In this document: piece by piece, positions 2,188-30,603 of the stretch
Position numbering within the stretch: position 1 is the first letter of the stretch
Layout: the number at the start of each line of letters is the position of its first letter
IMG/VR virus record: IMGVR_UViG_3300020463_000029
Location: 1-52,446 of that record
Length of the DNA: 52,446 bases
From: a virus
Lineage: Duplodnaviria > Caudoviricetes
Strand: one strand, 5' to 3'
Notes under the pieces: model-generated
Databases searched by the model: none
Seen by the model: the letters and a program-made list of their open reading frames with translations, nothing else
What the model was told of the DNA's origin: nothing
Program-made: the position numbers and the translations under genes

Positions 2188-5100
2188 ATGCCAGTATCAA
2201 ATGTAGGTAAAATATCAGGGCCATTATTAAAGGCAAATCTAACTAGAAATAGCGATTTGACTTTTGATAACACAGCAGTCACTTCTACACCTACTTTATT
2301 CATAGGACACACAAATAATAAGTTAGGTATTAGAACTGATTCACCTACTAGAGAATTATTAGTTAACGGAGATACAAAAGTAACTGGTGATGTTATTGCA
2401 ACAAATTCAGCATCATTTGGAAATTTAACATTTGATGGTCCAACAAATACTTTATCGGCTAGTGTTGGCAAAATAAATTTAAACAGTGCTAGTAGTTTTA
2501 CATTTAACGAATTACGTACAGACAATTTAAGTTTTACAAACAGCACAATCAGAGGATATGCTGGAGATAACATTAATATTCATCCAGGACCTGGCACAGG
2601 AATTTTTAATATTCCTATGGATTTAAAATCCTATGGTAATATTCATGCAACAGGAGATATTTCATTTGACGGAAATATATTCATTGGTGGAGATGGAGCA
2701 GAAGATTCATTAAGTTTTGAAGGAGATATCACTTCAAACATAATGCCCGATGCAACATCAACTTATAATTTAGGTGAAACAGGAAAACGTTGGGGACAAA
2801 TGCATCTTCAATCAATGCCTGGTTTACAAGACGTTGTTATTGACAACACAATTTCTTTGGCAGGTGTTGCCGTAAACTTAGGTATTCAAAATAAATGGTA
2901 TGTCAGTACAAATGGTGCAGACAACCTTGCAGGTAATCACCCTAACTTTGCGTTTGGTACAATCAAACACGCATTAAGTTACATCCAAGAAAGTTCTGCT
3001 GGTCCACATCAATTGCACATTTTACCTGGAACATACATAGAAGAATTTCCTTTAGAGGTTCCAGAAAACGTGACTGTAAAAGGTGCAGGTATAAGATCAG
3101 TAACAGTTAAACCTACACAGGCAGGAAGATTTAATGACGCATTTATAATGAATAATGCATCTATGGTTACAGATTTGGCTATACAAGAATTTCAATATAA
3201 TTCAACAACAGATGTTGGTTACGCATTTAGATTCGCACAAAACGCCGGCATAGTTACAAAATCACCTTATATACAAAACGTATCTGTAATAACACAAGGT
3301 TCTAACAGAACAGCATCTGATCCAAGAGGATTTGCATCCGGTGATGCGGGTAAAGGTGCATTATTAGATTCAAATGTATTGGATACTGCTTCTCCAAGAA
3401 CAAGTATGCTATTCAATGGCGTAACTTTTATTACACCAGGTGTAGATGCAGTAACAGTTAAAAACGGATCAAGAATTGAATTTATAGATTGTTTTACATA
3501 CTTCGCAAACAGAGGTTTGTATATGCAACACGCATTAAATCAATATACGCCAACAGCAGGAACTTATGAACCAGCAACTGGTGTAATGACATTGACTATC
3601 GGCAATCACTCTATAAGAGTTGGAGAATCCATAACCATTGCAGACAACAGTTTAACTTTTACGTGTGCTATGGACAATCATCAAACAGATCACACGTACC
3701 CAAGATCAACGGATCCTTATTCAGGCAAAAAAGTTTCCGTAACAGGAACAACTGCTACGTCTATAACTTGTAACGTTGGTATATCAAGCAACACAACAGC
3801 ACACATATTTAAAAGTGCTTCTGCTAATTCTGTAACAGAAGGCACAATGAATGAAGCAAGAGTAATAGCAAGTGCCACAATATACGGTAATCAAGGTGTT
3901 GTTGCAGATGGAAATGGTTGTTTAGCATATTTGATCAGTCATAACTTTGCTTATGTTGGCACAGGAAAAGATGTAGAAAATGATGACTATCTAATAAATC
4001 AAGAAAATGAAGTTGTAACAACTAACAATGCAAAAGTACATTTTGTAAGTCAAGACCAAGACGGAGATTTTAGAGTAGGTGAAAACTTTATAGTTGATTT
4101 AGGTAAAGGTACAACAAGTATTAACATTACTGATTCAGATTTAGGAGGTTCAACATTAACAGTTGGAACACCAGGTGCAACAACTATAATTGATGCTACA
4201 AAAATAGATGTGCCTAATTTTAGAATTTCAGCAAATGCAATTTCTACATTAGAAAATGGTTTAACAATTAATGCTTCTGGCAAAACTGTAATAGATGGTA
4301 ATGCTACAATGATGCAAAATTTAAATGTTACTGGAAATACAACAATAACAGGTTCAGGCATAAACCTTGGTGATCAACCAGGTGATACATTAAACTTTGC
4401 TCAAGAATTTCAAAATGATTTAATTCCTGTAGAAGATAGAGAACATAATTTAGGAAGTGCAAATAAAAATTGGAGACAAGCAAATTTAAACAAAGCAATA
4501 TTTGATGGTATAGAAATTACAAATAATGTAATTAGAGCAAATGATTCTAACAGTTCTGTAGATTTAAGAGCAAATGGTACAGGATCAGTAAATTTAGAAA
4601 ACTTATCATTCAACACACAAATACAAAGTGCTGGCGATGTTGGATTCGGAGTTGGTACAAACAGTTTACAATTTACAGGATTATCAAATATAGAGGTACC
4701 AGCAGGTACAACAGCACAAGATCCTGCACAAGGTAATGCAATTAGATATGATACAGATAGACAAAATTTTGAAGCATTTTCTACTGGAAAAATTCCATTT
4801 GGTGGTATTAGAGATGGTGATTATGACACTTATATTGATCTATCAAACAATCAGTTTAACTTTATAGCAGGTGGAACATCTGTAGGAACAATAGATGGAT
4901 CAGGTAATTTTGTTGCAAATAGACTCAGTTCACAGGATCAGTTTGCAATAGATAATAATCAAATCACAACAGGCACAGCAAACAATCCTGAAGCATCTTT
5001 ACAAGCGAACGGCAATGGTAAAATATTCATGGATACTTCAAATTTTGAAGTATTTGGTGGTACATTCTTAAACACAGTAACCAACTCTGATTTTGTATTA

Positions 5101-5355
5101 ACAGGTACGGCTCCTAAAGCCAACAGATACATTCACTTTGATACCACTCAAGCATACAGAGGACACTATGGTAATGAAACTGAAAGAGATGCAAAAACAC
5201 CAAGAGCAGGTGAAGTATTTTGGAACCAAACAAGTTCCACACTAGAAGTTTACACAGCAAATGGTTGGAAATCAGCCACTGGTTTACAGGAAATAACGGT
5301 TACAGAAGAGTTTGCACAGGATTTAAACGTATTATACAATCTTATATTAAACTAG
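2188..5355 (+). CDS. Large virion fibre-like protein with a beta-helix (pectin-lyase-like) domain; paralogue of 5530
   Basis: 1055 aa. N-terminal GKISGPLLKANLTR matches GRISGQLLKSNLLR of the next gene. Also shares YVSTNG.D...G....F.TI..AL (beta-helix entry), SPYIQNVSVITQG, ISHNFAY and DQDGDFRVG. Confidence 0.75.
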   Translation: MPVSNVGKISGPLLKANLTRNSDLTFDNTAVTSTPTLFIGHTNNKLGIRTDSPTRELLVNGDTKVTGDVIATNSASFGNLTFDGPTNTLSASVGKINLNSASSFTFNELRTDNLSFTNSTIRGYAGDNINIHPGPGTGIFNIPMDLKSYGNIHATGDISFDGNIFIGGDGAEDSLSFEGDITSNIMPDATSTYNLGETGKRWGQMHLQSMPGLQDVVIDNTISLAGVAVNLGIQNKWYVSTNGADNLAGNHPNFAFGTIKHALSYIQESSAGPHQLHILPGTYIEEFPLEVPENVTVKGAGIRSVTVKPTQAGRFNDAFIMNNASMVTDLAIQEFQYNSTTDVGYAFRFAQNAGIVTKSPYIQNVSVITQGSNRTASDPRGFASGDAGKGALLDSNVLDTASPRTSMLFNGVTFITPGVDAVTVKNGSRIEFIDCFTYFANRGLYMQHALNQYTPTAGTYEPATGVMTLTIGNHSIRVGESITIADNSLTFTCAMDNHQTDHTYPRSTDPYSGKKVSVTGTTATSITCNVGISSNTTAHIFKSASANSVTEGTMNEARVIASATIYGNQGVVADGNGCLAYLISHNFAYVGTGKDVENDDYLINQENEVVTTNNAKVHFVSQDQDGDFRVGENFIVDLGKGTTSINITDSDLGGSTLTVGTPGATTIIDATKIDVPNFRISANAISTLENGLTINASGKTVIDGNATMMQNLNVTGNTTITGSGINLGDQPGDTLNFAQEFQNDLIPVEDREHNLGSANKNWRQANLNKAIFDGIEITNNVIRANDSNSSVDLRANGTGSVNLENLSFNTQIQSAGDVGFGVGTNSLQFTGLSNIEVPAGTTAQDPAQGNAIRYDTDRQNFEAFSTGKIPFGGIRDGDYDTYIDLSNNQFNFIAGGTSVGTIDGSGNFVANRLSSQDQFAIDNNQITTGTANNPEASLQANGNGKIFMDTSNFEVFGGTFLNTVTNSDFVLTGTAPKANRYIHFDTTQAYRGHYGNETERDAKTPRAGEVFWNQTSSTLEVYTANGWKSATGLQEITVTEEFAQDLNVLYNLILN

Positions 5356-5391
5356 TATATTAACCGTGTACTATATTAAAAACCAAAATTC

Positions 5392-5399
5392 TATAAATA
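5392..5399 (+). promoter_or_regulatory. T4-type late promoter TATAAATA
   Basis: Perfect match to the T4 late consensus, in an intergenic region. Confidence 0.8.
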
Positions 5400-5406
5400 C
5401 AATTAA

Positions 5407-5510
5407 TGTTGTTATCCGACCAGATGCAACAGGACAAACCCTGGTTCAACCCGGGAAGAACTTGCGAATATTGTAAGGTGAAAAGGTAGGTTGGTGGGAC
5501 AAGATCCCCG
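5407..5510 (+). ncRNA. Candidate structured cis-regulatory 5' leader RNA (family unassigned)
   Basis: GC-enriched ~105-nt tract between the late promoter and the RBS. Four hairpins can be drawn, plus a loop-to-distal pairing CCGACC(5416-5421)/GGTTGG(5489-5494). Confidence 0.55.
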
Positions 5511-5529
5511 TGCTAAAAAGGAGTAAACA

Positions 5530-8500
5530 ATGGCCGTTGGTCGAATTTCGGGTCAACTCTTAAAGTCAAACTTGTTGCGACAAGGTACAAACTTGGCTTT
5601 TGAGACTGACTTGTTATACATTGATGTAGTAAACAATAGGATCGGCGTTAAGACCGCTACTCCGCAATATCCACTAGATGTAGTTGGAACAGCACGTACA
5701 ACAAACTTAGAAGCAACAGGTCAATTAGACATTGGTCAAATCACAATATCAGGTAACTCTATAACAACAACTGCTGGACAGTTGAACTTGTCTGCTCCTG
5801 ATGGTATTTTATACAACAATAATCTACAGGTAGATGACCTTATAATTGCTGGTAATTCTATTACAGCAACAGACACAAATCAAAATTTTGAAATTCAAAC
5901 ACAGGGTACTGGTATTTTAGAAGTACACGGTAACACACGAGTAAACGGAAATATTCACGCAACAGGAAATATTAGAGCAGATGGTAATATACAAATAGGT
6001 GACAGTGATACAGATTCTATCACTATTAATGCTGATATTACATCGAACTTAACACCTGATGTATCTAACACATACAACATTGGTTCTGCTGTAAAACGTT
6101 GGAACAATGTTTATGCAAACAATTTAACTGTTGACAACTTAACACTTTCAGGAAACATTACAGTACAAGGACTAAACTTAACAGCACGTCCAGGTAAAAT
6201 AATATACGTTGCAACAAACGGTGATGACAGTAATTCAGGTACGCACCAAAATGATCCTTATGCCTCAATCGAACAAGCATTGGCAGTAGCAATAGCAGGT
6301 GATCACATTTACATATATCCAGGAACATACACTGAAGCATTTCCAATGAATGTACCAACTGGAGTATCAATAAGAGGTGATGGACTGAGAGCAGTTAACA
6401 TTCAACCTAGTGTTGCAACAAACACTAAAGATGCATTTATTTTAAATGGCGAAGTAACAATTGAAGACTTAACTGTTAAAAATTTCTATTATGATTCTGG
6501 TAACAACACTGGATACGCATTTAGATTTAATCCTACTGGAAATGATGACAGTACTGGATTTTTAGTAACAAACAGATCACCGTATATTAGAAACATTTCT
6601 GTAATCACACAAGGAACAACATCTACAGCAACAGATCCAAGAGGTTTCGCGGCAGGCGATGCTGGTAGAGGTGGATTTTTTGATGGCGAATTAGCGGCTC
6701 CTGGTAGTCAAGAAGCAAGTGTACTATTTCAAAATGCAACATTTATCACTCCAGGTGTTGATGCAATTACACTTACAAATGGTGCAAGAGTTGAATGGTT
6801 AAACAGTTTCACGTACTTTGCAACAACATCTATTAATGCTTATGATGGAGTTAACGGATTAAGAGGCACAGGTACAACTCAATTAAGAGTTTCAGGTTTA
6901 TCTGGTGGTGCTATCACTCAAGGTAATGTAATTTCTTATTACGATATTGGCGGATCATTAGTTGCATCAGGAACTATTGCCGCAGTAGATAATGATAAAA
7001 TTTTTATTAATGGAAAATCTGCAGGATTTATTTTACCAGCAGAACAAAATGGAAAAACAATTAACGCATTAGGTAATGCACAACTTAATACAGCAGAAAA
7101 GAAATTTGGTTCTGCAAGTTTACAATTAGCAGGTTCAGGTGATGCGGCAAAAATAAACACAAATGCAGACTTTGGATTTGGAACAGGAGACTTTACTATA
7201 GACTTCTGGGGTAATTTATCAGCACTACAATCAACAGTATTGTTCGATATGAGAACAAGTGCCGCACTACAAAACAGTTTATATGTTTATGTAACAAACA
7301 ATGGTCCAAAAGTTTATGTAAACGGTTCTGAAGTTATTTCAGGCTCACAAGGATTTAATTTAAACACATGGACACACTTTGCTCTTGTAAGACAAAGTGG
7401 AACATTAACGATGTATGTTGCTGGACAAAACGTTGGTTCTGCAACAGTGAACCAAGACTTAGGTGGTGCTAAACCACTTGTAATTGGAAACAATTGGAAT
7501 CAAACATTAGGTTTAACAGGTTACATAGATGAATTTAGAGTGTACAAAGGTTCAGCAGTTTACACAGGAAACTTTACACCACCAACAGTTGGTGCAGTTG
7601 GTAATGCAAACACTGTGTTAGTTGCAAACTTTGATGGCAACAATGCATCAACAATATTTTTAGATAAAAATTTAATTGCACAAGATATTAGATTTAGTAA
7701 TGGTGCAACAGCAACAGCATTTACTTTAGTTGATTATGCAGACTTTGGTGCAGAAGTTAGATCAATAGCATCAGCATCAATTTACGGAACATTTGGAATG
7801 AAAGGTAACGGTCCAGGTGTTAGAATGTATCTTATCAGTCATAACTTTGCTTACATAGGCAATGACTACAATGTAGATAACGATGCAAACACAGTAATAC
7901 AAGCAAACGAAGTTGTTGCAACAAATGGTGCAAAAATATTTTTTAGTTCAGTCGACCACAAAGGAGACTTTAGAGTTGGTGATCAATTTAGAGTTGATCA
8001 AAACACAGGACAAGTAGATTTTACAAGTGCAAACTTAAACATTGATGTTGATCAAGCACTTACATTTACAACAGGATCAGATGTAACAGTAATTTCAGGA
8101 AGTTCAATTGAAACTGGAAATGTAAAATTATCAGGAAATACTATCACAACCACATCTGGAGATTTAACTTTAGATTCATTTGGTAACAATACAGTATTCA
8201 ACGACAATGTAGATGTAAATGGAAACCTTTCTGTTATAGGTGATATTACAATTGGTGGTAATGTTACTATTGGAGATGAATCAACAGATGAAATTACAAT
8301 CTCTGCTGGTATAGATTCTAATTTAATTCCAAACATAGATACCACATATGATTTAGGTTCTTCAACTAAAAATTGGAACACATTGTTTGCTCAAGAGGCA
8401 CAAATTGATAGTGTTAACATTGTTGGAAATGTAATTCAATCAAATAACACAAACGCAGATTTAGATATTAGAGCAAGTGGTACAGGTAACGTAACATTAG

Positions 8501-9258
8501 AAAACTTCGCTGTACAAAATGATACAATTACAAACACATCAGGAGATTTTATTGTTAATCCTGCAAGTAACATTTTCAAAGTTCAAGGTACAGGTTCAAT
8601 AAGAATACCATCAGGTACAACAGCACAAAGACCTGGTTCAGCAGTTGCTGGTATGATGAGGTACAACACAGATGATACTGTGTTTGAAGGTTACAACGGC
8701 TCAAACTGGGTGGCATTAACTGGTGTATATGACCTAGATAGAGACACTTATATCACAGCAGAACAGACACCTGGTGCTGATGATGATACAATAAGATTTT
8801 ACGCAGGTAATACACTGGTTGCAAACGTAAGTCCAACAAGATTTGACGTAACAACTTTAAGGGTAGATGATATTCAAATCAGTGGAAATACACTGACAAC
8901 TGTTCAAACTGACCAAGATTTGATCCTAAATGCCAACGGAAATGGTACTATTAGGATTGAAGACTTCAGATTCTCTGGAAATACGATAACTAATGTTATA
9001 TCTTCTCCATTAGTGTTTAAAACTACTGGAAGTGGGTATATTGATGTATCAAACTCTGGTGGATTTGTACTTCCAGTTGGTACAGGTGCTGATAGACCAC
9101 CGACTCCATTGTTGGGTATGATTAGATACAATACCAACGATGAAAGGGTTGAACTTTATGACGGTAGCCAATGGGGTTCAATTGCGGGTTCATCAGGTGC
9201 TGTAAGTATTATTGATGCAACAGAAATAGCCGTACAAATTGCGGTAACGTTAGGATAA
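5530..9258 (+). CDS. Large virion fibre-like protein with beta-helix and LamG/concanavalin-like lectin domains
   Basis: 1242 aa with an AAGGAG RBS. LamG-type segment KFGSASL...FGTGDFTIDFW...WTHFALVR...GYIDEFRV (~7050-7650); two PxGTxAxRP...GMxRYNT motifs; ends IAVQIAVTLG. Confidence 0.8.
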   Translation: MAVGRISGQLLKSNLLRQGTNLAFETDLLYIDVVNNRIGVKTATPQYPLDVVGTARTTNLEATGQLDIGQITISGNSITTTAGQLNLSAPDGILYNNNLQVDDLIIAGNSITATDTNQNFEIQTQGTGILEVHGNTRVNGNIHATGNIRADGNIQIGDSDTDSITINADITSNLTPDVSNTYNIGSAVKRWNNVYANNLTVDNLTLSGNITVQGLNLTARPGKIIYVATNGDDSNSGTHQNDPYASIEQALAVAIAGDHIYIYPGTYTEAFPMNVPTGVSIRGDGLRAVNIQPSVATNTKDAFILNGEVTIEDLTVKNFYYDSGNNTGYAFRFNPTGNDDSTGFLVTNRSPYIRNISVITQGTTSTATDPRGFAAGDAGRGGFFDGELAAPGSQEASVLFQNATFITPGVDAITLTNGARVEWLNSFTYFATTSINAYDGVNGLRGTGTTQLRVSGLSGGAITQGNVISYYDIGGSLVASGTIAAVDNDKIFINGKSAGFILPAEQNGKTINALGNAQLNTAEKKFGSASLQLAGSGDAAKINTNADFGFGTGDFTIDFWGNLSALQSTVLFDMRTSAALQNSLYVYVTNNGPKVYVNGSEVISGSQGFNLNTWTHFALVRQSGTLTMYVAGQNVGSATVNQDLGGAKPLVIGNNWNQTLGLTGYIDEFRVYKGSAVYTGNFTPPTVGAVGNANTVLVANFDGNNASTIFLDKNLIAQDIRFSNGATATAFTLVDYADFGAEVRSIASASIYGTFGMKGNGPGVRMYLISHNFAYIGNDYNVDNDANTVIQANEVVATNGAKIFFSSVDHKGDFRVGDQFRVDQNTGQVDFTSANLNIDVDQALTFTTGSDVTVISGSSIETGNVKLSGNTITTTSGDLTLDSFGNNTVFNDNVDVNGNLSVIGDITIGGNVTIGDESTDEITISAGIDSNLIPNIDTTYDLGSSTKNWNTLFAQEAQIDSVNIVGNVIQSNNTNADLDIRASGTGNVTLENFAVQNDTITNTSGDFIVNPASNIFKVQGTGSIRIPSGTTAQRPGSAVAGMMRYNTDDTVFEGYNGSNWVALTGVYDLDRDTYITAEQTPGADDDTIRFYAGNTLVANVSPTRFDVTTLRVDDIQISGNTLTTVQTDQDLILNANGNGTIRIEDFRFSGNTITNVISSPLVFKTTGSGYIDVSNSGGFVLPVGTGADRPPTPLLGMIRYNTNDERVELYDGSQWGSIAGSSGAVSIIDATEIAVQIAVTLG

Positions 9259-10078: not shown

Positions 10079-11362
10079 ATGACAAGACAACTAATTAACA
10101 CCGGTATTTTGCCTAACGATGGTCAAGGTGACTCGTTACGTGATGCTGGTACAAAACTAAATTCCAATTTCAGTGAATTATACACTGCACTTGGAAACGG
10201 TACAGCACTGACAATTGTCAGTAATAATTTATTAAACGCAACAGGTTCAAACAAAGTAAGTTTTTTATACACTAATCTTTCAGATCTGCCAAGTGCAAGT
10301 ACGTATCACGGAATGTTCGCCCACGTTCATTCTGAAAATGCTTCTTACTATGCTCACGCAGGTGCATGGGTTAAACTCGCAGACGAGAATAAATCCATTG
10401 ACATTTTTACGGATGTAGATACTTCAACAGCGGCTCCATCAAATGGACAAGCACTTGTTTGGGACCAAGGTGCAAGTAAATGGAAACCAGGCACAGTATC
10501 CGGTGGTGGCGGCGGAGGTGGTGCAACTACCTTCTTGGCACTTACAGATACACCTACAACTTTTTCAGGTTATGCAAATGGCTTCTTAAGAGTTAACGGT
10601 GCAGGTGATGGTTTAACACTTGTAAACAATTTTTCAATTGATACTTTATCAGATGTTGACACAACAACTAGTGCTCCAGCATCAGGACAAGTTTTAAAAT
10701 GGAACGGTACACAATGGGCGCCGGCGAATGATGCAACATCAGGTGGCGGTGGATTAGACGCTGATACATTAGATGGTTTGGACAGCACATACTTTTTAAA
10801 TTACAACAATTTAACAAACAAACCAGCAATTCCAACAGCGTTCACAGGATTATCAGATACTCCTACAAACTTTACAGGTGCGGCTGGTAGATTTGTTAAA
10901 GTAAATGGTTCAGGTACTGCTTTAGAATTTGTTACATCTTCTTCGGCTTCAACAGCATTGAACGATTTAACAGATGTTACGGCTTCAGGTGCGGCACAAG
11001 GTGATGTATTATATTACAATGGAACTGCATGGGTTTTACAAAATGGTCCAGTAATTAGATGGAATATTACAAACAACGGCGCAAGTGATTACACATTTAA
11101 TGGTCCAGGTTTTCCTAGTGCTGTAAATGATCCAGTATTATATTTGATGAGAGGACACACTTACGTTTTAGTAAATGGTGGAGGCTCTACACACCCATTT
11201 GAAATAAGAGTTTCAAACGGCGGAAGTGCGTACAGTACAGGAGTAACAGGTTCACAATCAGGAACACAGGTATTTACGGTACCAATGGATGCACCAAGCA
11301 CATTGTATTATCAATGTACGGCGCATAGTGGAATGGGTAACACAATTAATATTGTAAGTTAA
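10079..11362 (+). CDS. Fibre protein with a T4 gp9/gp10-like N-terminus and a C-terminal cupredoxin-like domain
   Basis: N-terminal INTG..PNDGQGDSLRDAG.KLN.NF.ELY; repeated L.DV......GQ.L.W fibre units; C-terminal THPF...VPMDAPSTLYYQCTAHSGMG. Confidence 0.75.
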   Translation: MTRQLINTGILPNDGQGDSLRDAGTKLNSNFSELYTALGNGTALTIVSNNLLNATGSNKVSFLYTNLSDLPSASTYHGMFAHVHSENASYYAHAGAWVKLADENKSIDIFTDVDTSTAAPSNGQALVWDQGASKWKPGTVSGGGGGGGATTFLALTDTPTTFSGYANGFLRVNGAGDGLTLVNNFSIDTLSDVDTTTSAPASGQVLKWNGTQWAPANDATSGGGGLDADTLDGLDSTYFLNYNNLTNKPAIPTAFTGLSDTPTNFTGAAGRFVKVNGSGTALEFVTSSSASTALNDLTDVTASGAAQGDVLYYNGTAWVLQNGPVIRWNITNNGASDYTFNGPGFPSAVNDPVLYLMRGHTYVLVNGGGSTHPFEIRVSNGGSAYSTGVTGSQSGTQVFTVPMDAPSTLYYQCTAHSGMGNTINIVS

Positions 11363-11775: not shown

Positions 11776-14700
11776 ATGGCAGATTTTCGAATAGATAGGA
11801 TACGTTTTAAATGGAGAGGTGATTGGACAGCAGGCACTCTCTATGTAAAAGATGACGTTTTAAGATTCGGTGCAAAAGTTTATGTTTGTATTGAAGTTCA
11901 CACATCAGATTCAAACTTTTATAATGATTTAAATTCAAGTACTCCTAAATGGACGCAGATGATGGACGGTCAAAGTTGGACCGGAGATTGGAAAGCGGCA
12001 ACTTTTTACAAAATTGGCGAACTAGTAAAAGTTGGTGGTCTAATTTACAAATGTATCGAAGGACATATTTCAAATGCTGATGCAAACAACGGTGTATTAG
12101 GTGACGAATTAAAATGGGTTTACTTTGCACGTGGAGAAGATTGGCAAACTGTATGGCAACCAAACACATTGTACAATGTTGACCAGACTGTAATCTACGG
12201 TGGTTCAATTTGGAAATGTAACACAGCACACACATCTTCAACAGCAGACGCAGGATTGGCTTTCCATGCAAGTTATTGGGATCTATATTCTAAATCAGAC
12301 AACTGGAGAAATGTTTGGACAGAAAATACTTTATACTATCCAGATGATATTGTAAGATACGGTGGTAACATTTATAGATGTTTAACAGGACACAGATCAG
12401 CACCAGTTAACAACTGGACAAATCCTACATACACAACAGGAGCAACAGGAACAAATGCGGCATTTTTTGTTTGGAGAGTAGGAACAACTTATTATGTAAA
12501 CATCACGAACGCAGGTACAGGTTACGCAAACTTAAACACATTTAATATTGTTGGAACAGCACTAGGTGGCGATGTTGGCTCACACGATGCTGTGATTCAA
12601 GTAAACACAGTTGATGGTTCGGGTGCAATACAATCAGTTTCAATCACAGGAACAGCAAACAATGTAAATGATGGATTAGAAGCCAATACTGCTCAATGGG
12701 AATTAGTATTAACTGGTATCAGTTACGTTGGAGATTATGCAAGAGGAACAAGATACAAACCAAATGAAATAGTTAGATGGTCTCCAGGCACGTGGAAAGT
12801 GTCAACAGGTCATTGGGCAACTGATCCTAGAATGGTTGAAGCAAACTTCAGTTTATGGATTCCAGGTTTAGAGTATGAAGACCTTTGGACGGAATCACAG
12901 TACTATCAACAAGGTGATGTGGTACTTTACGGAGGTTACACATATGTTGCACTTGTAAGTAACATTGGTATAACTCCAACATTAACAGATTCGACAAACA
13001 CTTGGGAAGCACAGGTTTTAGGTTACACATTCAAAGGAGAATGGGTTGGACAAACAATACAAAATGGTCAACTTCAACCTTATGTTTACAAAACAGGAGA
13101 TGTTGTAAGAGCAGGTGGTGATTTATACATTGCTGTAAGAACAAATTCTGATGTTGGACCAGACACAAGAGATGTTTATGATCCAGGTACAGACGAACCT
13201 TTCCCATGGCAGTTATTAGTAACAGGAAATATGTTCAGAGGTCCTTGGGTGGATCAAGATATAGGCGGAGTTACAGGTGAGTCTACTTATTTCCCAGGTG
13301 ATCTTGTAACAATAGCAGGAACACTTTACAAATGTATTTTAAAACATGAAGCAAATTCTTCAGATGCTAAACCACCATTAGATTTTGCATCAGAAAATGT
13401 TGGTCCATATTGGGTATTAGTGGCACAAGGTCACACTCCAAACGTATTGGAATATCCTGGAGATATAAAAACCCAAGCAGATGATTCTACAAGATTGAGA
13501 ATAGGTATTGGAACAACAGGACAATTATTAAAAGCAGGTTCAAACACTTATCCTTTCTGGGAAGATTTTGAAAAAGTAAACAAAGTTTATTATGTTGCAC
13601 CAGATGGAATTGATCTAGAAACAGCAGGTAACAAATTAAGTTCACCATTTAAAACAATCAAGTATGCTTGTGATTACATCCAAGGTGATTTGGCAAATAG
13701 AGCACCAGCAACAATATTCATTAAAACAGGAATATACGAAGAAATTTTACCTATCACAGTACCAAGAGATGTGGCACTTGTAGGAGACGAATTAAGAAGT
13801 ACAACAGTAAAACCAGCGGCAGGTTATGAAACTGGTTATGATATGTTCTATGTAAACAATGGAACAGGAATTAGAAACATGACACTACAAGGTTTAACAG
13901 GAACTCTAGGTGCTATGAATCAATATGGTACAAAAAGACCAACAGGTGGTGCTTTTGTTTCATTAAATCCAGGAACAGGTGTAAACGACGCAAGTGCTTG
14001 GATCACAAGTAAATCATGTTATGTACAAAACGTTTCAACATTTGGATCAGGATGTATTGGATTAAAAGTAGATGGTGACCTACACGCAGGTGGTTACAGA
14101 TCAGTTGTTGCTAATGACTTTACACAGGTTATTGACAACGGTATTGGTTATTGGGCAAACGGTGAAGGAAGATCAGAACTTGTTTCTGTATTCACGTACT
14201 ACTGTCACATAGGATATCTTGCAACTAACGGTGGTAAAGTTAGAGCAACTAACGGAAATAATTCTTATGGAGATTTTGGTTCAGTTGCAGAAGGTGTTAC
14301 ACCAACTGAAACTCCTATCACAGGTAAATTTAATAACAGAACAGGTGAAGCAACAGTAGATAAAGTTTACAACGATGAAAACGAAATATTTGCTTTTGCT
14401 TATGATCACGCAGGACAAGATTACACATCTGCAACAATTACAATTTCAGGTTCAGGTGAAGGTGCGGCAGGTTCTATTGCGTATGAAAATACAAGAGATA
14501 ATGCTGTAAACAGAATTAGAATATTAGGTCCTGGAGATTCAACACCAGCAGGTGGTGCCGCTTATACAAGTAAATCAGGACCAGCAATTTCAGGTGATGG
14601 TACATCAATCAAACTAAATGCACAGTTCCAAGGTACAACTGCACAAACAGTTGGACAAAGAATTTACATTTGGGAAGGTACAGGCAGAGGACAATACGCA

Positions 14701-16920
14701 ATTATTGATTCATTTAATGAAGTAACAAAAGTTTGTACAGTTAAAAAAGAATTTGATAACACACCAGGCTGGCAACATTTCTTAGGAGGATTCAAAATTG
14801 AAACAGAATTAGATCCTTCAACAAAATATTTTATTGAACCAAGAATTCAGGTTTCAGAACCAGCATATGCAAATTCAACAGCAAGTATTCCACTTGCAGG
14901 AAATTATGACATAGGTGCACAAAGAAGAGTAGGAGCATCTAATGTAACTGTTTTATTAGGAAACGGAAGAGGTTTAAGAACAACAGATGGTTCAAGTTGG
15001 ACAACTGGAAACGCAGTACCAACAGCAAACTGGACAGACTTAGAAGGTGGTGCTAACTGGTTTATGGCAGTGTCAACTGATGGTACAGTAGCAAGATCTC
15101 AAGACGGTGCAAACTGGAGTGACATCAGCAGTAATTTAGGTGCTGATCTTTTCACAGGTGTTGCTTATGAAGGTACTACATGGATTGTTGCTTCAAGAAC
15201 AGGTGTTGTTTACAGATCAACAGATGAAGGTAATACATGGACAAACCAACAAGTTGAACCATATGATGGATCAACTCCAGTATTTCATTATGCGGCGGCA
15301 GGTAACGGATTGTTTATATTATCAAACAACCTAGGTCAAACTTGGGAATCAATTAATGATGGTGTAACATGGCAAATGGCGGCTGACATCGGTGGTACAA
15401 GATACCTTGTTAATTCTTTACAATACTTAGGTGGAAAATTTGTTGCAACTGTACAAGATTCACCATTTGATGATTCAACATCAGCAAACAAATTCTTTGT
15501 TTCAAATGCTAACGTGGCACAAAGTTCAACAAGTGCAACAACAGTATGGACAGAATCAGATGCTCCACCACACACAGGACCATACAATGTTACTTGGTCT
15601 CAAGGAACTTTTGTTGCAGTGACACCTTCAGGTGAAGTTGCTTACAGTTATGACTGTGTAAGTTGGAAACAATTAACAACATTATCAGGAACATTCGGAA
15701 GAATAGTAGGCGGAAGATCAGGTGGCAATTACTTTGTTCCATTATCAACAGGACCAATGAGTAACTTAACAATATTGAAAAAAGGTGCTCCACCACTTTG
15801 TAGAGTAATTACAAATGCAGGTAAAGTATCTAAAATACAAATACTTGATCCAGGTTCAGGATACGCAAGTGCACCAACAGTTTCAATCACGGACAATGTT
15901 AATACAGTAGATGTAAGTGTACAAGCAAGAACAGCCAACGGAGTATTAGGACAACCAACATTTACAAATAGAGGTACAGGTTTTATTAACGTAAGTGCAA
16001 CTCTTGATGGAGATGGATTTAAAGATGAATATCAAATTGGTAAAGTAATGCAAGTTCAAGATTTATCTAGAGAACCAGGACCAGGTGACTTGTTATACAT
16101 AAATGGTATTGATGATAAAATTTACAGAGTGACTCAAATAACAAATGTACAAGGAACTGCGCCTAACATATCAGCACAATTTAGAATATCACCAAGTCTA
16201 AAATCAAATGAATCTCCTAATCATTTAGAAACATTTACAATTAGACAACAATATTCACAAGTAAGATTAACAGGACATGATTTCTTAGATATTGGTACTG
16301 GTGGTTTAACAACTACAAACTATCCAACACTTTATACTAACGCAGGTTTCACTGAAGGATATGATCCACAACCTGCAAGAGAAGTTGCAAACAATGGTGG
16401 TGGTAGAGTATTCTACACGTCAACAGACCAAGATGGTAACTTTAGAGTTGGTGAATTATTTGAAGTTGAACAGGCAACAGGTATTGTTACACTTAACGCA
16501 GACTTATTCAACCTATCAGGATTAAGTGAATTAAGTTTAGGTGGTGTTGTATTAGGTGGAACTGAAGTTGTAATTAGAGAATTCAGTACAGATGCAACAA
16601 TGTCTGCTAATTCAGACAATATTGTACCAACACAAAAAGCAATCGTAACATATATTGGTAACAGAGTATCAGGTGGTGGTGCTAACTTGAATGTTTCTGG
16701 TTTCAGAGCAGGTCAGGTTAAAGTAAGAAATAGAGAAATGTTCAATGAAGCGTTCCCAACTAACGGTGTTATAAGTTTCCCTCAAGTAACCAATTTAAAT
16801 GGTGGAATGGGCGGTTACTTAATGGCGTTGAATTTCTTTACAGGAGGAACAGCAAGTACTGAACTAAATGAAGGGGATCCGATTAGTGCAATTGACGACT
16901 CTAATGGATATGGCTCATAA
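11776..16920 (+). CDS. Giant virion protein: about 8 CBM5/12-like repeats, beta-helix and BNR/Asp-box propeller
   Basis: 1714 aa. Repeats W.....Y...D.V.YGG..Y.C...H.S; Asp-boxes SQDGANW, STDEGNTW, SINDGVTW, SYDCVSW; C-terminal YSQVRLTGHDFLDIGTG shared with 16955. Confidence 0.8.
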   Translation: MADFRIDRIRFKWRGDWTAGTLYVKDDVLRFGAKVYVCIEVHTSDSNFYNDLNSSTPKWTQMMDGQSWTGDWKAATFYKIGELVKVGGLIYKCIEGHISNADANNGVLGDELKWVYFARGEDWQTVWQPNTLYNVDQTVIYGGSIWKCNTAHTSSTADAGLAFHASYWDLYSKSDNWRNVWTENTLYYPDDIVRYGGNIYRCLTGHRSAPVNNWTNPTYTTGATGTNAAFFVWRVGTTYYVNITNAGTGYANLNTFNIVGTALGGDVGSHDAVIQVNTVDGSGAIQSVSITGTANNVNDGLEANTAQWELVLTGISYVGDYARGTRYKPNEIVRWSPGTWKVSTGHWATDPRMVEANFSLWIPGLEYEDLWTESQYYQQGDVVLYGGYTYVALVSNIGITPTLTDSTNTWEAQVLGYTFKGEWVGQTIQNGQLQPYVYKTGDVVRAGGDLYIAVRTNSDVGPDTRDVYDPGTDEPFPWQLLVTGNMFRGPWVDQDIGGVTGESTYFPGDLVTIAGTLYKCILKHEANSSDAKPPLDFASENVGPYWVLVAQGHTPNVLEYPGDIKTQADDSTRLRIGIGTTGQLLKAGSNTYPFWEDFEKVNKVYYVAPDGIDLETAGNKLSSPFKTIKYACDYIQGDLANRAPATIFIKTGIYEEILPITVPRDVALVGDELRSTTVKPAAGYETGYDMFYVNNGTGIRNMTLQGLTGTLGAMNQYGTKRPTGGAFVSLNPGTGVNDASAWITSKSCYVQNVSTFGSGCIGLKVDGDLHAGGYRSVVANDFTQVIDNGIGYWANGEGRSELVSVFTYYCHIGYLATNGGKVRATNGNNSYGDFGSVAEGVTPTETPITGKFNNRTGEATVDKVYNDENEIFAFAYDHAGQDYTSATITISGSGEGAAGSIAYENTRDNAVNRIRILGPGDSTPAGGAAYTSKSGPAISGDGTSIKLNAQFQGTTAQTVGQRIYIWEGTGRGQYAIIDSFNEVTKVCTVKKEFDNTPGWQHFLGGFKIETELDPSTKYFIEPRIQVSEPAYANSTASIPLAGNYDIGAQRRVGASNVTVLLGNGRGLRTTDGSSWTTGNAVPTANWTDLEGGANWFMAVSTDGTVARSQDGANWSDISSNLGADLFTGVAYEGTTWIVASRTGVVYRSTDEGNTWTNQQVEPYDGSTPVFHYAAAGNGLFILSNNLGQTWESINDGVTWQMAADIGGTRYLVNSLQYLGGKFVATVQDSPFDDSTSANKFFVSNANVAQSSTSATTVWTESDAPPHTGPYNVTWSQGTFVAVTPSGEVAYSYDCVSWKQLTTLSGTFGRIVGGRSGGNYFVPLSTGPMSNLTILKKGAPPLCRVITNAGKVSKIQILDPGSGYASAPTVSITDNVNTVDVSVQARTANGVLGQPTFTNRGTGFINVSATLDGDGFKDEYQIGKVMQVQDLSREPGPGDLLYINGIDDKIYRVTQITNVQGTAPNISAQFRISPSLKSNESPNHLETFTIRQQYSQVRLTGHDFLDIGTGGLTTTNYPTLYTNAGFTEGYDPQPAREVANNGGGRVFYTSTDQDGNFRVGELFEVEQATGIVTLNADLFNLSGLSELSLGGVVLGGTEVVIREFSTDATMSANSDNIVPTQKAIVTYIGNRVSGGGANLNVSGFRAGQVKVRNREMFNEAFPTNGVISFPQVTNLNGGMGGYLMALNFFTGGTASTELNEGDPISAIDDSNGYGS
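16426..16451 (+). repeat. 26-bp exact repeat (second copy at 22235-22260)
   Basis: GACCAAGATGGTAACTTTAGAGTTGG occurs in both paralogous giant genes and encodes DQDGNFRVG. Confidence 0.85.
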
Positions 16921-16954: not shown

Positions 16955-19900
16955 ATGGCTGAGTTTAAACTAGGTAGAATTCGATTTGTATGGAAAGGTT
17001 CTTGGTACACAGGAGCCGTTTATTCAGTAGATGATGTAGTAAGATATGGTGGTAGAACATATATCTGTGTGGTTAACCATACAGCGGCATCAGAATTCCA
17101 AACTGATTTAACAGCGGCAAATTGGGCATTGATGTCCGATGGTCAAGAATGGAAAGGTGACTGGAGTCTTAACACAACTTACAAACCAAATGACATTGTA
17201 AAATACGGTGGATACATTTATATTTGTAACACAGGTCACACATCAACAGCAGTTGCTAATGATGGATTAGAAGTTGATATTGCAAAATGGGATCTTTTCA
17301 TTGAAGGATTTAATTACACATCAGATTGGGCAATCAGCACAAGATACAAAATTAACGATTTAGTAAGATACGGAAATTCAATTTATCTTTGTACAACTGC
17401 ACACGTTTCTGCGGCAACAACAGCAGATGGTTTAGAGGCTAACAGTGCTAACTGGGAATCTTTTGCAAAAGGTTTTAATTGGTTAAACAACTGGGCAATT
17501 AATACAAGATACAAATCAAATGACACAGTAAGATATGGTGGACAACTTTACATCTGTATTACTGGACACACATCAGCGGCTACAACTGCTTTAGGTTTAG
17601 AACCAGATCAAGCAAAATGGCAAGCAGTACACCCAGGTATCGAATACAAAGGCACTCACGCAGGTACAACAAGATATAAAGTAAATGATGTTGTTAAGTA
17701 TGGTGCAAATTTATACATTGCAACAGCAGGACACACATCAACAACAGATTTAAATGCAGACTCGGCGAACTGGGGATTATTCATTCCAGGTTTAGAGTTT
17801 GAAGATTCATGGAGTTCATCAACACAATATCAACAAGGTGACATTGTAACATACGGAGGTTTCCAATATGTTGCATTAACTCTTAACTCAAATAAAAATC
17901 CATCAACACAAACAAGTGATTGGGATTTATTTGTAACAGGGTTCAGTTTAAAAGGTGATTACAACAATGGAACGGCTTACAAAACAGGTGACGTTGTTAG
18001 AGTTGGTGGTATAACTTACATTTCAATTGCAGACACAACAGGTAACAGACCACCGAATGTATTATACTGGGATAAACTTAACGAAGGTTTATACTGGAGA
18101 GGTACTTGGACAAATGCGACTTACTACGACAAAGGCGACATTATAAGAGGTGCAATCAATACTGATACTTCTTATGTTGCAGTAACATCACACACTGCAA
18201 ACAATGTAGGTCCAAGCACAATTAACGAACCAGGTTATGCACCGGGGGCAGGTGTTGACACTTCAGTTTGGCAACTATTAGCAGGTGGTCCAGAGAATGA
18301 TACTTTATCTGCACAAGGTGATTTATTAATTTACGGTGCTTCAGGTCCAAGTAGATTAGCAATTGGTAATCCAGGACAAGCACTTGTTGTAAACTCAGCA
18401 GGTACTTTACCTCAATGGGGTTATGTTGGACAAATTGATCAAGTTTATTATGTAAGTCCAGATGGAAGTGATGTTCCAGCACCAGATGGTGGTGTAACTT
18501 TAGATAGAGCATGGAAATCTATAAGATATGCACTACACCAAATGGACAAAGGACCAAGAAATCCACAAGCAGTAAATCTTTTAGAAAGAAACAAAGCATT
18601 TATTCAAGATGAAACTATTGCTTGGATCAATGCACAGATTGCCGGTGCAATTACTCCATTCACAGGATCATTTACATACAACGCAGTAAAATGTAGAAGA
18701 GATATTGGTATTCTAATTGAATCAGTATTACATGATTTAAGACATGGTGGTAACAGAAAATCTAGAATGTCGGCATTAAGTTATTTCACGCCAGCAGGTG
18801 CTTCATATGTTACTGGACAAACAGCAGAAACGGCGGCGGCTATTGTTAGAGCGGCATACATTGCTCAACAAGTTGTTTCAAACAATACAAGTTACAGTGC
18901 ATCACAAGGTACAACTTTACAAGTTTCAGATTTAACAAAAAATGCTGAAGCAGGCACAACAACATCAATAGAAACTTTAATGAAACTTTCTTCAGATGCA
19001 ATTACGGCTGGAGTTGTTACAGGTATACCTACTGAAGTTTATCCAAACACAACATTAAACGTGAAAACAGGTACATATCAAGAAATTTTACCAATGAGTG
19101 TAAAAGAAAGATGTGCAGTTGTTGGAGATGAATTAAGATCAACAAATATCAGACCAGCAGGAGTTATTACTAATTCAAGTGATACACAATACAGTTTACA
19201 AGGTATACAACGTTTAGAAGCAATCGTCAGTGATATAATTCAAAACAGTGCAGTAACAGTTACGCCAACAGGTGGTGTAACAGGTTTAACTCCTACATCA
19301 GGCACAGTATTAGGAATTGCTGATGTTACTGGTACAGATGTTGCAACAACAACTACAGGTTCAGGAACAGGATTAAAAGTTACAGTAGTTTGTAATGCTT
19401 TCCAATCTTATTCTTCAGTAACAATCACTTCACCAGGACAAGGTTATGGTGCAGGCGATCAAATTACTATACCATCAGCAACAAGTTGTAATGCAAACAG
19501 TAACAATGCGGCAACACCTTTAGGTGCAGACATTGTATTGAACACAACAGGCGTTACAAGTGGTAACACATTAACACAAAACACAGCGGTACCGGCAGGT
19601 TCAGCGGCGGCGGCAACTGCGGCAACAACTTTAGCAGACAATATTGAAAAATACATTGACTTCAAAATAAATGCTAACGGTTCTGAACCAGCAATGACAG
19701 GTTCGAACATACCTAACACAACAGCAGGATACACAGATGCACGTTTAAGATTATTAGCAAACAAAGATTTCATTGCTAGAGAATGTTCAGAATATGTGAA
19801 AAGACAGAATCCAAGTTTAAACTTCAATCAAACTGATTGTGAAGATGATATTAAAGATTACGTAGACGGAATGATACATGACTTGTACTACACAGGTAAC

Positions 19901-28773: not shown

Positions 28774-30603
28774 ATGGACAACATAGAACAATATAACAAA
28801 ACAGGATACATTGCCGCAATAGCCAGAGGACACAATGCAGGTGTTTGTTTGTTAAAAGACGGTGAAGTAGTATTTTCTATTGAAGAAGAAAGATTATCCA
28901 GAAGAAAATATGATGGTGGTCCATATGCATCCATGGTTGAGATTTTGAAATACACAGACAAAATTGACTATCTTGTTATTGCACATACACAGTCACTAAA
29001 AGATCCTTCAACAGGTAGAGTAGATTACTCAGGTGATGATGTGTACACAGGTATGGCTAGAAAACTTGGTTTAATTGATCAACACATACACAAGACAGAA
29101 CATCCTCAAGTAATTGACTTATCACACATACATCACAAACTTCATGCCGCGTGTGCATTTTACAGATCAGGCTTTGACAAAGCAGTTGCAGTAATTGTAG
29201 ACGGTGCAGGAACTTTTATTCCTATACAAAATAGTATTGCAGGCGAGATGACTGTGTTTGAAGTTGAAAGTATTTTTAGTTGTGATTATCCAAATGATAT
29301 TTTTGCACTTTACAAACATTATGGCACAGGTAACGCAACACCTGGAGCATATTATCCACAAATGGATTCAGAAAATATAGGAGAAGCAGGACATACACAC
29401 GAAGCAATATTTTCAGACAAAGCAGGTATTGTAAAAGTTTACGAAGCAGTAACACAATATTGTGGATTTAGCGCCATTGAAGCAGGCAAGACAATGGGAT
29501 TATTTCCTTATGGAAAGAAAAATGATGTAATTCCACCATTATTTCAAAAAGAAGGAAAGTTTGAACTGTCAAATAGAAATTTAATTATTCCAACATATCC
29601 TAATGCATCAGTTATAAACAGTCAACACTATCCATTTTTAGATGAACAACCTTCATCTGATAAAACAGATGATTGGACAAAATTGCAAAGTAGGAGAGAT
29701 TTATCTTATGCTGTACAAAAAGAATCACAAAAACAATGTTTAGACTTAATTTACAAAGCAGTTGAAATGAGTGGTTGCAAAAATGTTGTATTCTCTGGAG
29801 GATACGGATTAAATTGTGTAGCAAATTATTATTATTTAGAAAGTTTACAAAAAGACGGCATTAAATTTTATGCAGAACCAGTGTCAAATGATGCCGGTAC
29901 GGCAATGGGTGCCGCAATGTTGTTCTATTACAGTTTGACACAAACAAAAGAAAAGAAAGTTGACGAACCGACGCTATACTTAGGTCCAAAAAGAACATAC
30001 ACTAAAGAACAAATTGAAAAAATTTGTAGTCAACCAGGCGTAGAATTAATAGATGCAACAAATGAAGAAGTAGTAAAAATAATTGCTGATAGAAATATTG
30101 TGTCTATTTTCCAAGGACAATCAGAAAACGGTCCAAGAGCATTAGGAAACAGATCAATATTATATGATCCAAGAGACCCTAATGGTAAAGATCACGTAAA
30201 CATGGTAAAACATCGTGAATATTTCAGACCATTTGCAGGTACAATTTTACATGAACACGTGCATGAATGGTTTGACCTACGAGGCATGGAAGAAACACCT
30301 CATATGATGTATGCTGTAAATTGTCAACCAGGCATTGAAGAAAAAATTCCAAGCATAATACACGTAGACGGCACTTGTAGAATACAATCTGTTAAGAGAG
30401 AACAGAATCCATTGTATTATGATCTAATAAAAGAGTTTCATAAACAAACAGATTGTCCGATTATCTTCAACACATCATTTAATTTAGGTGGAGAACCATT
30501 AGTTGAAACATTAGATGATGCTGTAAGAACATTAATACACAGTGCAATTGAGTACTTGTACTTGCCTGAATATAACAAACTAGTGAAAGTAAAAAATGGA
30601 TAG
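28774..30603 (+). CDS. O-carbamoyltransferase (NodU/CmcH/TobZ family)
   Basis: EEERLSRRK, HHKLHAACAF, VDGAG, GKTMGL, SGGYGLNCVAN, DAGTAMGAA, GPRALGNRSIL, KHREYFRPFA, HVDGTCRIQSV and NTSFNLGGEP. Confidence 0.95.
   Translation: MDNIEQYNKTGYIAAIARGHNAGVCLLKDGEVVFSIEEERLSRRKYDGGPYASMVEILKYTDKIDYLVIAHTQSLKDPSTGRVDYSGDDVYTGMARKLGLIDQHIHKTEHPQVIDLSHIHHKLHAACAFYRSGFDKAVAVIVDGAGTFIPIQNSIAGEMTVFEVESIFSCDYPNDIFALYKHYGTGNATPGAYYPQMDSENIGEAGHTHEAIFSDKAGIVKVYEAVTQYCGFSAIEAGKTMGLFPYGKKNDVIPPLFQKEGKFELSNRNLIIPTYPNASVINSQHYPFLDEQPSSDKTDDWTKLQSRRDLSYAVQKESQKQCLDLIYKAVEMSGCKNVVFSGGYGLNCVANYYYLESLQKDGIKFYAEPVSNDAGTAMGAAMLFYYSLTQTKEKKVDEPTLYLGPKRTYTKEQIEKICSQPGVELIDATNEEVVKIIADRNIVSIFQGQSENGPRALGNRSILYDPRDPNGKDHVNMVKHREYFRPFAGTILHEHVHEWFDLRGMEETPHMMYAVNCQPGIEEKIPSIIHVDGTCRIQSVKREQNPLYYDLIKEFHKQTDCPIIFNTSFNLGGEPLVETLDDAVRTLIHSAIEYLYLPEYNKLVKVKNG

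Follow-up and report, generated by a model that had tools for sequence, protein, structure and literature searches.

A conserved pseudoknotted mRNA leader that pairs with the first codons of a putative baseplate wedge gene in uncultured jumbo phages

Introduction

The leader of the E. coli alpha-operon (rpsM) to which S4 binds is represented in Rfam as Alpha_RBS. A double pseudoknot, this operator takes in the start codon together with some of the coding sequence and works by trapping the ribosome (PMC3616713). The rpsO operator of S15, a pseudoknot too, likewise holds the start codon and overlaps coding sequence; it also traps the ribosome, and the 30S subunit can bind it while the fold persists (PMC3616713). 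Here we describe a structured RNA element on a late gene of an uncultured phage, the open reading frame (ORF) at 5530–9258 of a 52,446-nucleotide (nt) stretch of DNA that makes up the whole IMG/VR virus record IMGVR_UViG_3300020463_000029 (referred to hereafter as the window). A first-pass annotation, made from the sequence of the window alone, had marked positions 5392–5529, ahead of a late structural gene, as a candidate for a new kind of pseudoknotted leader RNA that it could place in no known family. Strong covariation among relatives and the lack of any match in Rfam bear this out. The annotation had let the element end about 8 nt before the ribosome-binding site; it continues instead to about 5611, inside the coding sequence.

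The S4 and S15 operators would, by analogy, be the nearest working precedents. As in these systems, a leader loop pairs just after the start codon, and the initiation region lies inside the fold. The alpha-operon leader resembles the present element in having pseudoknots in the 5′ leader and in taking the start codon and a stretch of coding sequence into the fold; there, helix H1 covaries and the coding-side strands are constrained by the protein, whereas here the coding-side strand covaries through synonymous sites (PMC3616713). The two have no similarity in sequence or model, and the alpha-operon encodes a ribosomal protein, whereas the element described here is on a phage late transcript and a baseplate gene. 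The rpsO operator (Rfam RF00114) is likewise a pseudoknotted operator overlapping coding sequence (PMC3616713), but it is a much smaller two-state switch between hairpin and pseudoknot, and for the present element neither a match in Rfam nor a two-state alternative was found.

In T4, the gene 32 pseudoknot lies 67 nt upstream and nucleates cooperative binding of gp32 along an unstructured A+U-rich tract (PMC3014915). The first-pass annotation had drawn this comparison, and the likeness proves to be a loose one. Both cases involve a T4-type phage, an H-type pseudoknot at the 5′ end of an mRNA and probable translational control (PMC3014915), but here the structured domain abuts the Shine-Dalgarno (SD) sequence and pairs with codons 3–5, without an A+U-rich spacer. 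The downstream gene is that of a predicted wedge subunit, and the pseudoknot is followed by a further hairpin only ∼9 nt before the SD. Other RNA structures at T4 initiation regions are the stem of gene 25 and the hairpins of gene e and I-TevI (PMC3014915). They include a baseplate gene and are, like the present element, set relative to a TATAAATA promoter (PMC3014915), but each is a single local hairpin. Late transcripts of e and I-TevI escape the hairpin because the late promoter lies inside it (PMC3014915); late transcripts of the locus studied here carry the whole fold, since the promoter lies upstream of all of it.

Fremin, Bhatt and Kyrpides (2023) reported 8,495 covarying, unnamed csRNA candidates in DNA viruses of IMG/VR, 879 of them at most 25 nt upstream of genes with known domains (PMC10690425). 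These are the same kind of object as the leader element and come from the same data source (PMC10690425). The main text of that survey has no occurrence of baseplate or tail and no description of pairing with coding sequence; its candidate lists sit in the supplements, so that the leader part of the element may already be catalogued there as a csRNA (PMC10690425). Full-text literature searches found no description of the motif, and the pairing with codons 3–5 and the stem within the coding sequence are, as far as we have seen, undescribed.

The leader has a conserved pseudoknotted fold

Relatives were collected by three routes. With the N-terminal 300 residues of the downstream protein as query, 89 of 92 candidate stretches in IMG/VR proved to be relatives, a profile of ten diverse N-termini gave at least 590 relatives among at least 599 candidates, and exact scans with two forms of the P4 hairpin (a 16-mer and a 19-mer) gave at least 120 matches each. 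In all, 220 distinct leaders were gathered; an earlier count comprised 129 of type A and 86 of type B, the types being defined by P4 (see below).

Simple inspection of the raw upstream sequences already showed compensatory changes. Covariance model R1, derived from the clade to which the window belongs, was used to align 56 type-A leaders. In this alignment 97.2% of cells pair, as compared with 80.8% after shuffling and 32–49% when the partners are slid; 19 of the 29 pairs show double changes, and none of 500 shuffles reaches any of these measures. A second model (R2), which includes 24 nt of coding sequence, aligned 100 leaders, with 12 special loci among them added by choice. Here 93.4% of cells pair (76.3% shuffled, 33–47% slid) and 26 of 32 pairs are doubly changed. 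Both alignments were fitted to the nested helices P1–P4, and the pseudoknot helix (PK) and the long-range helix LR1 described below lie outside both models; RNAalifold picks the PK helix unprompted. Helices P1, P2, PK, P3 and P4, all on the + strand, form a conserved RNA fold. Covariation in homologous leaders, on which the first-pass annotation had staked its proposal, is thus decisively present. It had also expected folding better than that of shuffled sequence, and in this it was wrong: for 5392–5529 the minimum free energy (MFE) of −26.3 kcal/mol is weaker than the average of −28.6 over shuffled sequences (z +0.61), and 142 of 200 shuffles equal or surpass it in stability.

The 5′-most helix, P1, is a hairpin of 5407–5416 with 5423–5431, with one bulged U and the loop CGACCA at 5417–5422. 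It had been drawn correctly as TGTTGT(T)ATC/GATGCAACA, as both a check of the sequence and covariation confirm. In the 100-sequence set, all nine modelled P1 pairs show double changes and 90–92% of cells pair, and the stem sequences differ wholly between clades. In some leaders (L127, L130, L140, L166, L171, L251, L267, L269 and L274) the P1 loop is turned into a junction by one more hairpin, variable in sequence and inserted immediately 3′ of GACC, which remains exposed.

P2 consists of three base pairs (bp), 5440–5442 (CCU) with 5453–5455 (GGG), and encloses GGU at 5443–5445 together with the 5′ strand of PK. The annotation had proposed a longer helix, CCCTGG/CCCGGG, and the three outer pairs of it are the ones kept in relatives; the remaining pairs are not. 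All P2 cells pair (100%), with UA 67 and CG 33 at the first pair, GC 96 and CG 4 at the second, and UG 89, UA 6 and CG 5 at the third. The variants include CCU/GGG, CGU/RCG, UGU/GCA, UGU/ACA, UGC/GCA, CGC/GCG and AGU/GCU, the last, an A-U form, being found in three type-B leaders. G-U pairs had been taken as a sign of structure at the RNA level, and the third P2 pair, U-G in 89 of 100 sequences, agrees with this: since such frequent U-G pairs would be A-C mismatches on the other strand, the structure belongs to RNA of the + strand. The GGU of the P2 loop is near-invariant, being present in 212 of 214 parsed leaders (GAU in L083 and GGC in L206 are the exceptions), and no pairing partner was found for it.

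An H-type pseudoknot is completed by PK, in which CAACC (5447–5451) pairs with GGUUG (5489–5493). The 3′ strand had previously been matched with CCGACC in the region of the P1 loop; it covaries with CAACC instead, and the P1 loop pairs with codons 3–5. Double changes occur in all five PK pairs, and 96.4% of cells pair in the 100-sequence set. At least nine fully complementary combinations exist, namely CAACC:GGUUG, UAACC:GGUUA, UAGCC:GGCUA, CAACU:AGUUG, UAUCC:GGGUA, CAGUC:GACUG, CAGCC:GGCUG, UCGCC:GGCGA and UCUCC:GGGGA. A middle-pair A-C mismatch in 14 of 129 type-A leaders and terminal mismatches in a few are the exceptions.

The two remaining hairpins, CTTGCGA/TTGTAAG and GGGA/TCCC, are present as annotated and covary. 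The former, P3 (5461–5467 with 5471–5477), is optional, and five of five modelled pairs covary where it is present; because relatives carry 0, 1 or 2 hairpins at this position, P3 is a variable insert in loop 3 of the pseudoknot. The latter, P4 (5496–5499 with 5505–5508), has the type-A form GGGA-CAAGA-UCCC in the window. In relatives GGGA/UCCC changes to GGCA/UGCC, the pair in question being GC in 82, CG in 8 and UA in 5 of the 100 sequences. In 86 of 215 distinct leaders P4 is replaced by CCGUG-AAA-CACGG (type B), with CGGUG/CACCG in one relative. The hexamer GGACAA occurs twice, at 5432 and 5497, as had been noted.

P4 has two sharply conserved forms, GGGACAGGAUCCC and CCGUGAAACACGG (type B at loci such as L063–L074 and L284–L403). 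On the protein tree there are six switches of form, as might result from modular exchange or from co-evolution with some partner. Two reduced leaders precede the same baseplate gene: L198 has no P1 and keeps P2, the pseudoknot and P4, and in L374 only the 3′ strand of the pseudoknot and P4 are kept.

The P1 loop pairs with codons 3–5

The loop of P1, CGACCA (5417–5422), pairs with UGGUCG (5538–5543), that is, with the last base of codon 3, the GGU of Gly4 and the CG of Arg5. This partner was first suggested by a fold that included the start of the gene, and the resulting helix, LR1, is supported by covariation and codon bias. Gly4 is GGT in 206 of 214 distinct genes, compared with 44% of the glycine codons elsewhere in those genes. 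Arg5 is CGN in 210 of 214, with A, C or T freely in the third position; the background is 48–53% CGN and 48% AGA.

The coding side follows the loop. Leaders with GACC, GACU, GGCC or GGCU in the loop have GGUCG at the codons in 190 of 190 cases, and those with GUCC have GGACG in seven of eight (Fisher's test 1.4e-9, uncorrected for relatedness). When the GGACG coding form was scanned for without regard to the leader, 12 loci (7 distinct leaders) were returned, and the P1 loop was GUCCA in 12 of 12. The combination of GUCC with GGAC arises four times on a tree of 204 downstream proteins, and one clade without the loop motif has GGA AGA at these codons. In the 100-sequence set the core pairs of LR1 are GC in 95 of 99; AU 81, UA 9, GU 6 and other 3; CG 95 and UG 3; and CG 91 and UG 6.

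Ten distinct homologues have the same N-terminal peptide behind plain leaders of 18–40 nt. None of the ten has GGUCG and none has CUC at Leu10, whereas GGUCG is present in 32 of 32 leader-bearing genes from the same search. The leaderless paralogue in the window (2188) uses CCA UUA UUA. These leaderless homologues are a natural control, and for the link between leader and codons a decisive one. We conclude that the P1 loop pairs with codons 3–5.

In our first model, ACC of the P1 loop kissed the GGU of the P2 loop. Only one-sided changes, and no double changes, were seen for this pair, and it was dropped in favour of the pairing of loop with codons because GGU is unchanged when the loop becomes GUCCA.

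Structure inside the coding sequence

The SD sequence AAGGAG that the first-pass annotation had seen (5518–5523) begins 9 nt past the last helix, and the start codon is the ATG at 5530–5532. Both are unpaired between P4 and LR1. Beyond LR1 a further stem, P6, is predicted from codon bias and pairing, with 5551–5554 opposite 5608–5611 and 5558–5565 opposite 5598–5605 (+22 to +25 with +79 to +82 and +29 to +36 with +69 to +76 in the numbering of the gene). Synonymous codon use is strongly skewed over this region: Gly8 is GGT in 87%, Pro9 CCG in 88% (background 10%), Leu10 CTC in 89% (2%), Lys12 AAG in 79% (21%), Glu25 GAG in 91% (10%) and Asp27 GAC in 75% (33%). Such skew shows that the first 27 codons have been shaped by RNA structure.

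In P6, 90% of cells pair as compared with 20–61% in slid controls, and MFE folding recovers the stem in 174 of 215 sequences. Linked synonymous changes are seen at +33:+72 (A-U 156, G-U 23, G-C 13) and at +30:+75 (C-G 169, U-A 8). Since double changes are, taken together, no more numerous than in the slid controls, we regard P6 as a moderately supported, predicted stem. An inner hairpin between +37 and +68 is not claimed: no single register is kept, and its pairs are 30–83% paired.

No conserved anti-SD sequence was found in the leader. CUCUU in codons 10–11 was tried in this role and not adopted. Of 214 folds cut at +60, 110 pair it with the SD; once folding extends to +105 the count drops to 9 of 215, and CUCUU pairs within P6 instead. 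The SD:CUCUU pairing may be a transient state. A small ORF from the ATG at 5406–5408 was also rejected: it has no SD sequence, the frame of the core differs among relatives, and type B has CTG.

The late promoter and transcripts across the leader

The T4-type late promoter motif TATAAATA that the first-pass annotation had seen is confirmed at 5392–5399 on the + strand, and relatives keep NATAAATA or CTAAATA. TAAATA is found upstream of 220 of 220 distinct leaders, a count to be read with the fact that TAAATA served as the anchor when leaders were collected. On the + strand of the window, eight NATAAATA sites precede ORFs, this motif among them. Its distance to the start codon is 138 nt, compared with 24–52 nt for the other seven late leaders. 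The bases between the promoter and P1 (5400–5406 and their equivalents in relatives) are also conserved, as CUAUUAAUG or CUAUUACUG. T4 late promoters are not known to need so much conserved flank, and the conserved bases may belong to the initiation region or else to the fold.

The leader is covered by assembled metatranscriptome contigs of two studies. Two of them bridge the promoter (4895–5544 and 5332–5858), and one (X2 record 9) starts at 5404, five bases past it, a weak hint of the transcript start; such contigs cannot reveal transcript ends, strand or cleavage. No terminator was found between the upstream gene and the leader, or after the leader; the lack of one upstream implies that read-through transcripts exist.

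The element is linked to a single gene

The gap in which the leader lies (5356–5529, 174 nt) is, as had been claimed, the longest of its block; all the others between ORFs listed from 1 to 22.6 kb are of at most 40 nt. It separates two tandem, paralogous large ORFs, 2188–5355 and 5530–9258. The reported enrichment in G+C (GC) is real but modest, at 0.42 for 5392–5529 where the window averages 0.367, and 14% of all stretches of 138 nt reach this value or exceed it; the segment 5407–5510 reaches 0.49. The ORF at 5530–9258 matches baseplate wedge subunit families over nearly its full length (phrog_13163, E 1.5e-184) and carries a Laminin_G_3 domain. On these matches it is predicted to be a gp7-like baseplate wedge gene.

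The element is exclusively linked to this one baseplate gene. About 9 of the 120 listed 16-mer matches are chance occurrences in unrelated GC-rich DNA. The other listed 16-mer matches, and the listed 19-mer matches with enough downstream sequence, all precede an ORF that starts MA[VI]GRISGPLLK. There is one copy of the element in the window and one in each of five larger contigs. Candidate extra copies elsewhere, matches to R1 of at most 23 bits, were in coding DNA with broken pairs and were discarded.

Among 50,697 records of isolate phages, blastn with the window stretch and the leaders of two relatives as queries found no similar leader, and tblastn with the N-terminal 300 amino acids (aa) gave only partial matches of less than 60% identity. 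The 4227 models of Rfam 15, among them Alpha_RBS, S15 and the classes of riboswitches and ribozymes, had no match at the gathering score in the whole window and none at E ≤ 10 on 5300–5600. In eight diverse relatives (24,018 bases), a limit of E = 5 gave a single match, to mir-155 in coding DNA (E = 2.5).

Function of the element

Because the fold demonstrably includes the first codons, we favour a translational reading, and because a single-copy element is tied to one gene, we read it as cis-acting. We thus propose, with a probability of about 0.6, that this structured part of the mRNA acts in cis as a translational operator, with the ribosome-binding site enclosed in it. In this general form the regulatory role suggested by the first-pass annotation is retained. 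The operator would span the region from the start of the late-promoter transcript (about 5404) through the first ∼27 codons (to about 5611). The leader folds as P1, the H-type pseudoknot (P2 and CAACC:GGUUG, with optional P3 in loop 3) and P4; the P1 loop then pairs with codons 3–5, and the predicted P6 follows inside the coding sequence. This places the SD and AUG in a single strand of ∼29 nt, closed on both sides by tertiary structure. Within the footprint of the 30S subunit, +9 to +14 must be single-stranded for entry into the mRNA channel, and the loop–codon helix must therefore open at each initiation. A 30S subunit could thus reach the SD but would be unable to thread +9 to +14 until this helix opens. 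The fold would in this way set or gate the initiation rate of one low-copy baseplate protein, most probably by repression, and a trans factor (a phage protein, perhaps an unassembled baseplate subunit) may stabilize the closed form, as S4 and S15 do.

Several points weigh against this proposal. The folding energy of the single sequence is unremarkable, also for 5405–5545 (z +0.47). Shuffle controls overstate significance because the sequences are related, and the 100-sequence set was deliberately enriched with its 12 special loci. The core of LR1 is only 4 bp (6 bp in the window), the flanking pairs failing in 42 and 33 of about 95 sequences, and 22 of 220 leaders are without a recognizable loop motif, although 17 of these still have GGTCG. 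One leader has no P1 (L198), and another has neither P1 nor P2 nor the 5′ strand of the pseudoknot (L374). DNA carry-over is possible in the metatranscriptome contigs. That the fold lowers translation, rather than raising or merely buffering it, is our inference; no candidate RNA-binding protein or other trans factor was identified among the neighbouring genes, and a structural gene product as RNA-binding repressor is speculative.

A more specific version of the operator, which we consider possible but doubtful, is that the fold senses the progress of assembly. Free baseplate protein (the gp7-like protein or a wedge partner), or a small molecule, would bind to the core of the pseudoknot, lock the P1 loop on codons 3–5 and trap the ribosome, so that synthesis of the wedge-initiating protein would be matched to baseplate assembly. 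If so, phage tail and baseplate genes would here have their first autogenous translational operator, and uncultured jumbo myoviruses a new, widespread RNA family, in which P4 types A and B would mark two co-evolved specificities of RNA and factor.

A riboswitch, in which P1, P2 and the pseudoknot form an aptamer for a small molecule or ion and the ligand decides if the P1 loop is free to clamp codons 3–5, would account for a good deal of the architecture: covarying stems around a pseudoknotted core with invariant unpaired bases (the P2-loop GGU, AAC before P2 and the A-rich loop 3), optional stems of variable length (0–2 hairpins at P3, inserts in P1), a position in the 5′ untranslated region adjoining the ribosome-binding site, and a P4 region that varies by lineage (types A and B) as expression platforms do. 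Glutamine riboswitches are, moreover, present in related marine myophages (PMC9004378). We nevertheless think a riboswitch improbable. In every case the gene concerned is one and the same structural gene, unconnected with metabolism or transport; the 4227 models of Rfam give no match; no mutually exclusive alternative pairing was found; and the P2-loop GGU does not follow the A-to-U change of the P1 loop. A check for an expression platform found no terminator and no anti-SD in the leader, with SD:CUCUU pairing mostly confined to folds cut at +60. Another rival is that the fold activates translation, as a scaffold that keeps the SD and AUG single-stranded, for instance by holding the SD apart from the CUCUU of codons 10–11, and provides a standby site that raises initiation. 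The stem of T4 gene 25 enhances initiation. That gene, also a baseplate gene, has its conserved stem at the initiation region (PMC3014915); in the supported fold here the SD and AUG are indeed unpaired, and CUCUU, which pairs with the SD when P6 is left out (110 of 214 folds cut at +60), sits in P6 in 174 of 215. However, the spacing of SD and AUG is already normal, a helix at +9 to +14 inside the 30S footprint is expected to hinder rather than to help, and leaderless homologues manage with leaders of 18–40 nt. Activation is therefore, in our view, unlikely.

Effects on the mRNA itself are quite unlikely to be the main function. A 5′ stem-loop with a compact fold could shield the late transcript from decay that depends on the 5′ end, and P1 does begin a few bases from the inferred transcript start (promoter 5392–5399, contig start 5404), but a plain hairpin would be enough for such protection, and the pairing of codons 3–5 and the codon skew up to +82 would be left unexplained. 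Alternatively the fold could mark a processing site between the tandem baseplate genes. In favour of this is read-through into the leader, with no terminator upstream and RNA contigs bridging 4895–5544 and 5332–5858; the contigs, which cannot show cleavage, have no break inside the leader. The first-pass annotation had also offered a free-standing small RNA, and had suggested an assay for self-cleavage. Many orphan ribozyme classes come from phage and metagenome DNA, and pseudoknots and invariant bases are present here. Yet no Rfam ribozyme model matched, no terminator follows the element, the fold runs on into the coding sequence by way of LR1 and P6, and the RNA contigs, weak as this evidence is, run through the leader; neither a ribozyme nor an independent small RNA gene finds support, and we consider both highly improbable.

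With its hundreds of natural variants, the element constitutes a well-supported and undescribed RNA family, from giant aquatic phages without a cultured carrier, and indicates that elaborate post-transcriptional control can extend to a late structural gene of a phage. Ready-made test mutants are available in the compensatory pairs GACC:GGUC and GUCC:GGAC found in nature. First codons shaped by RNA (27 in this case) matter for the annotation and expression of such genes, and the element may serve as a metagenome marker for this phage group.

Genome context

The window is a fragment of a jumbo T4-like myovirus. CheckV rates its completeness at 19% and that of related contigs of 100–186 kb at 27–52%, from which genomes of roughly 270–370 kb are expected. 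The tail sheath (49739–52444) is closest to those of the jumbo phages Atu_ph07 and PA5oct and of Phosso, at only 37–38% identity. A gp9/10-type gene lies downstream of the leader-bearing gene at 10079–11362.

The ORFs 2188–5355 and 5530–9258, and also those starting at 11776 and 16955, are tandem paralogous baseplate wedge genes with a common N-terminal G[RK]ISGPLLK module. Among these wedge paralogues only the second, 5530–9258, has a structured leader. Leaderless and leader-bearing copies coexist on other contigs too (e.g. L466 and L463, on one contig). Three ORFs of the window are giant, 11776–16920, 16955–22651 and 33946–40971 (1714, 1898 and 2341 aa), with matches to tail fibre families for the first of them. 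The structural module also contains sugar- and carbamoyl-modifying genes, at 28774–30603 and, on the − strand, at 41350–42165 and 42742–44001; their matches are to a Nol-like carbamoyltransferase, a nucleotide-sugar epimerase and a heptose kinase/adenylyltransferase-like domain.

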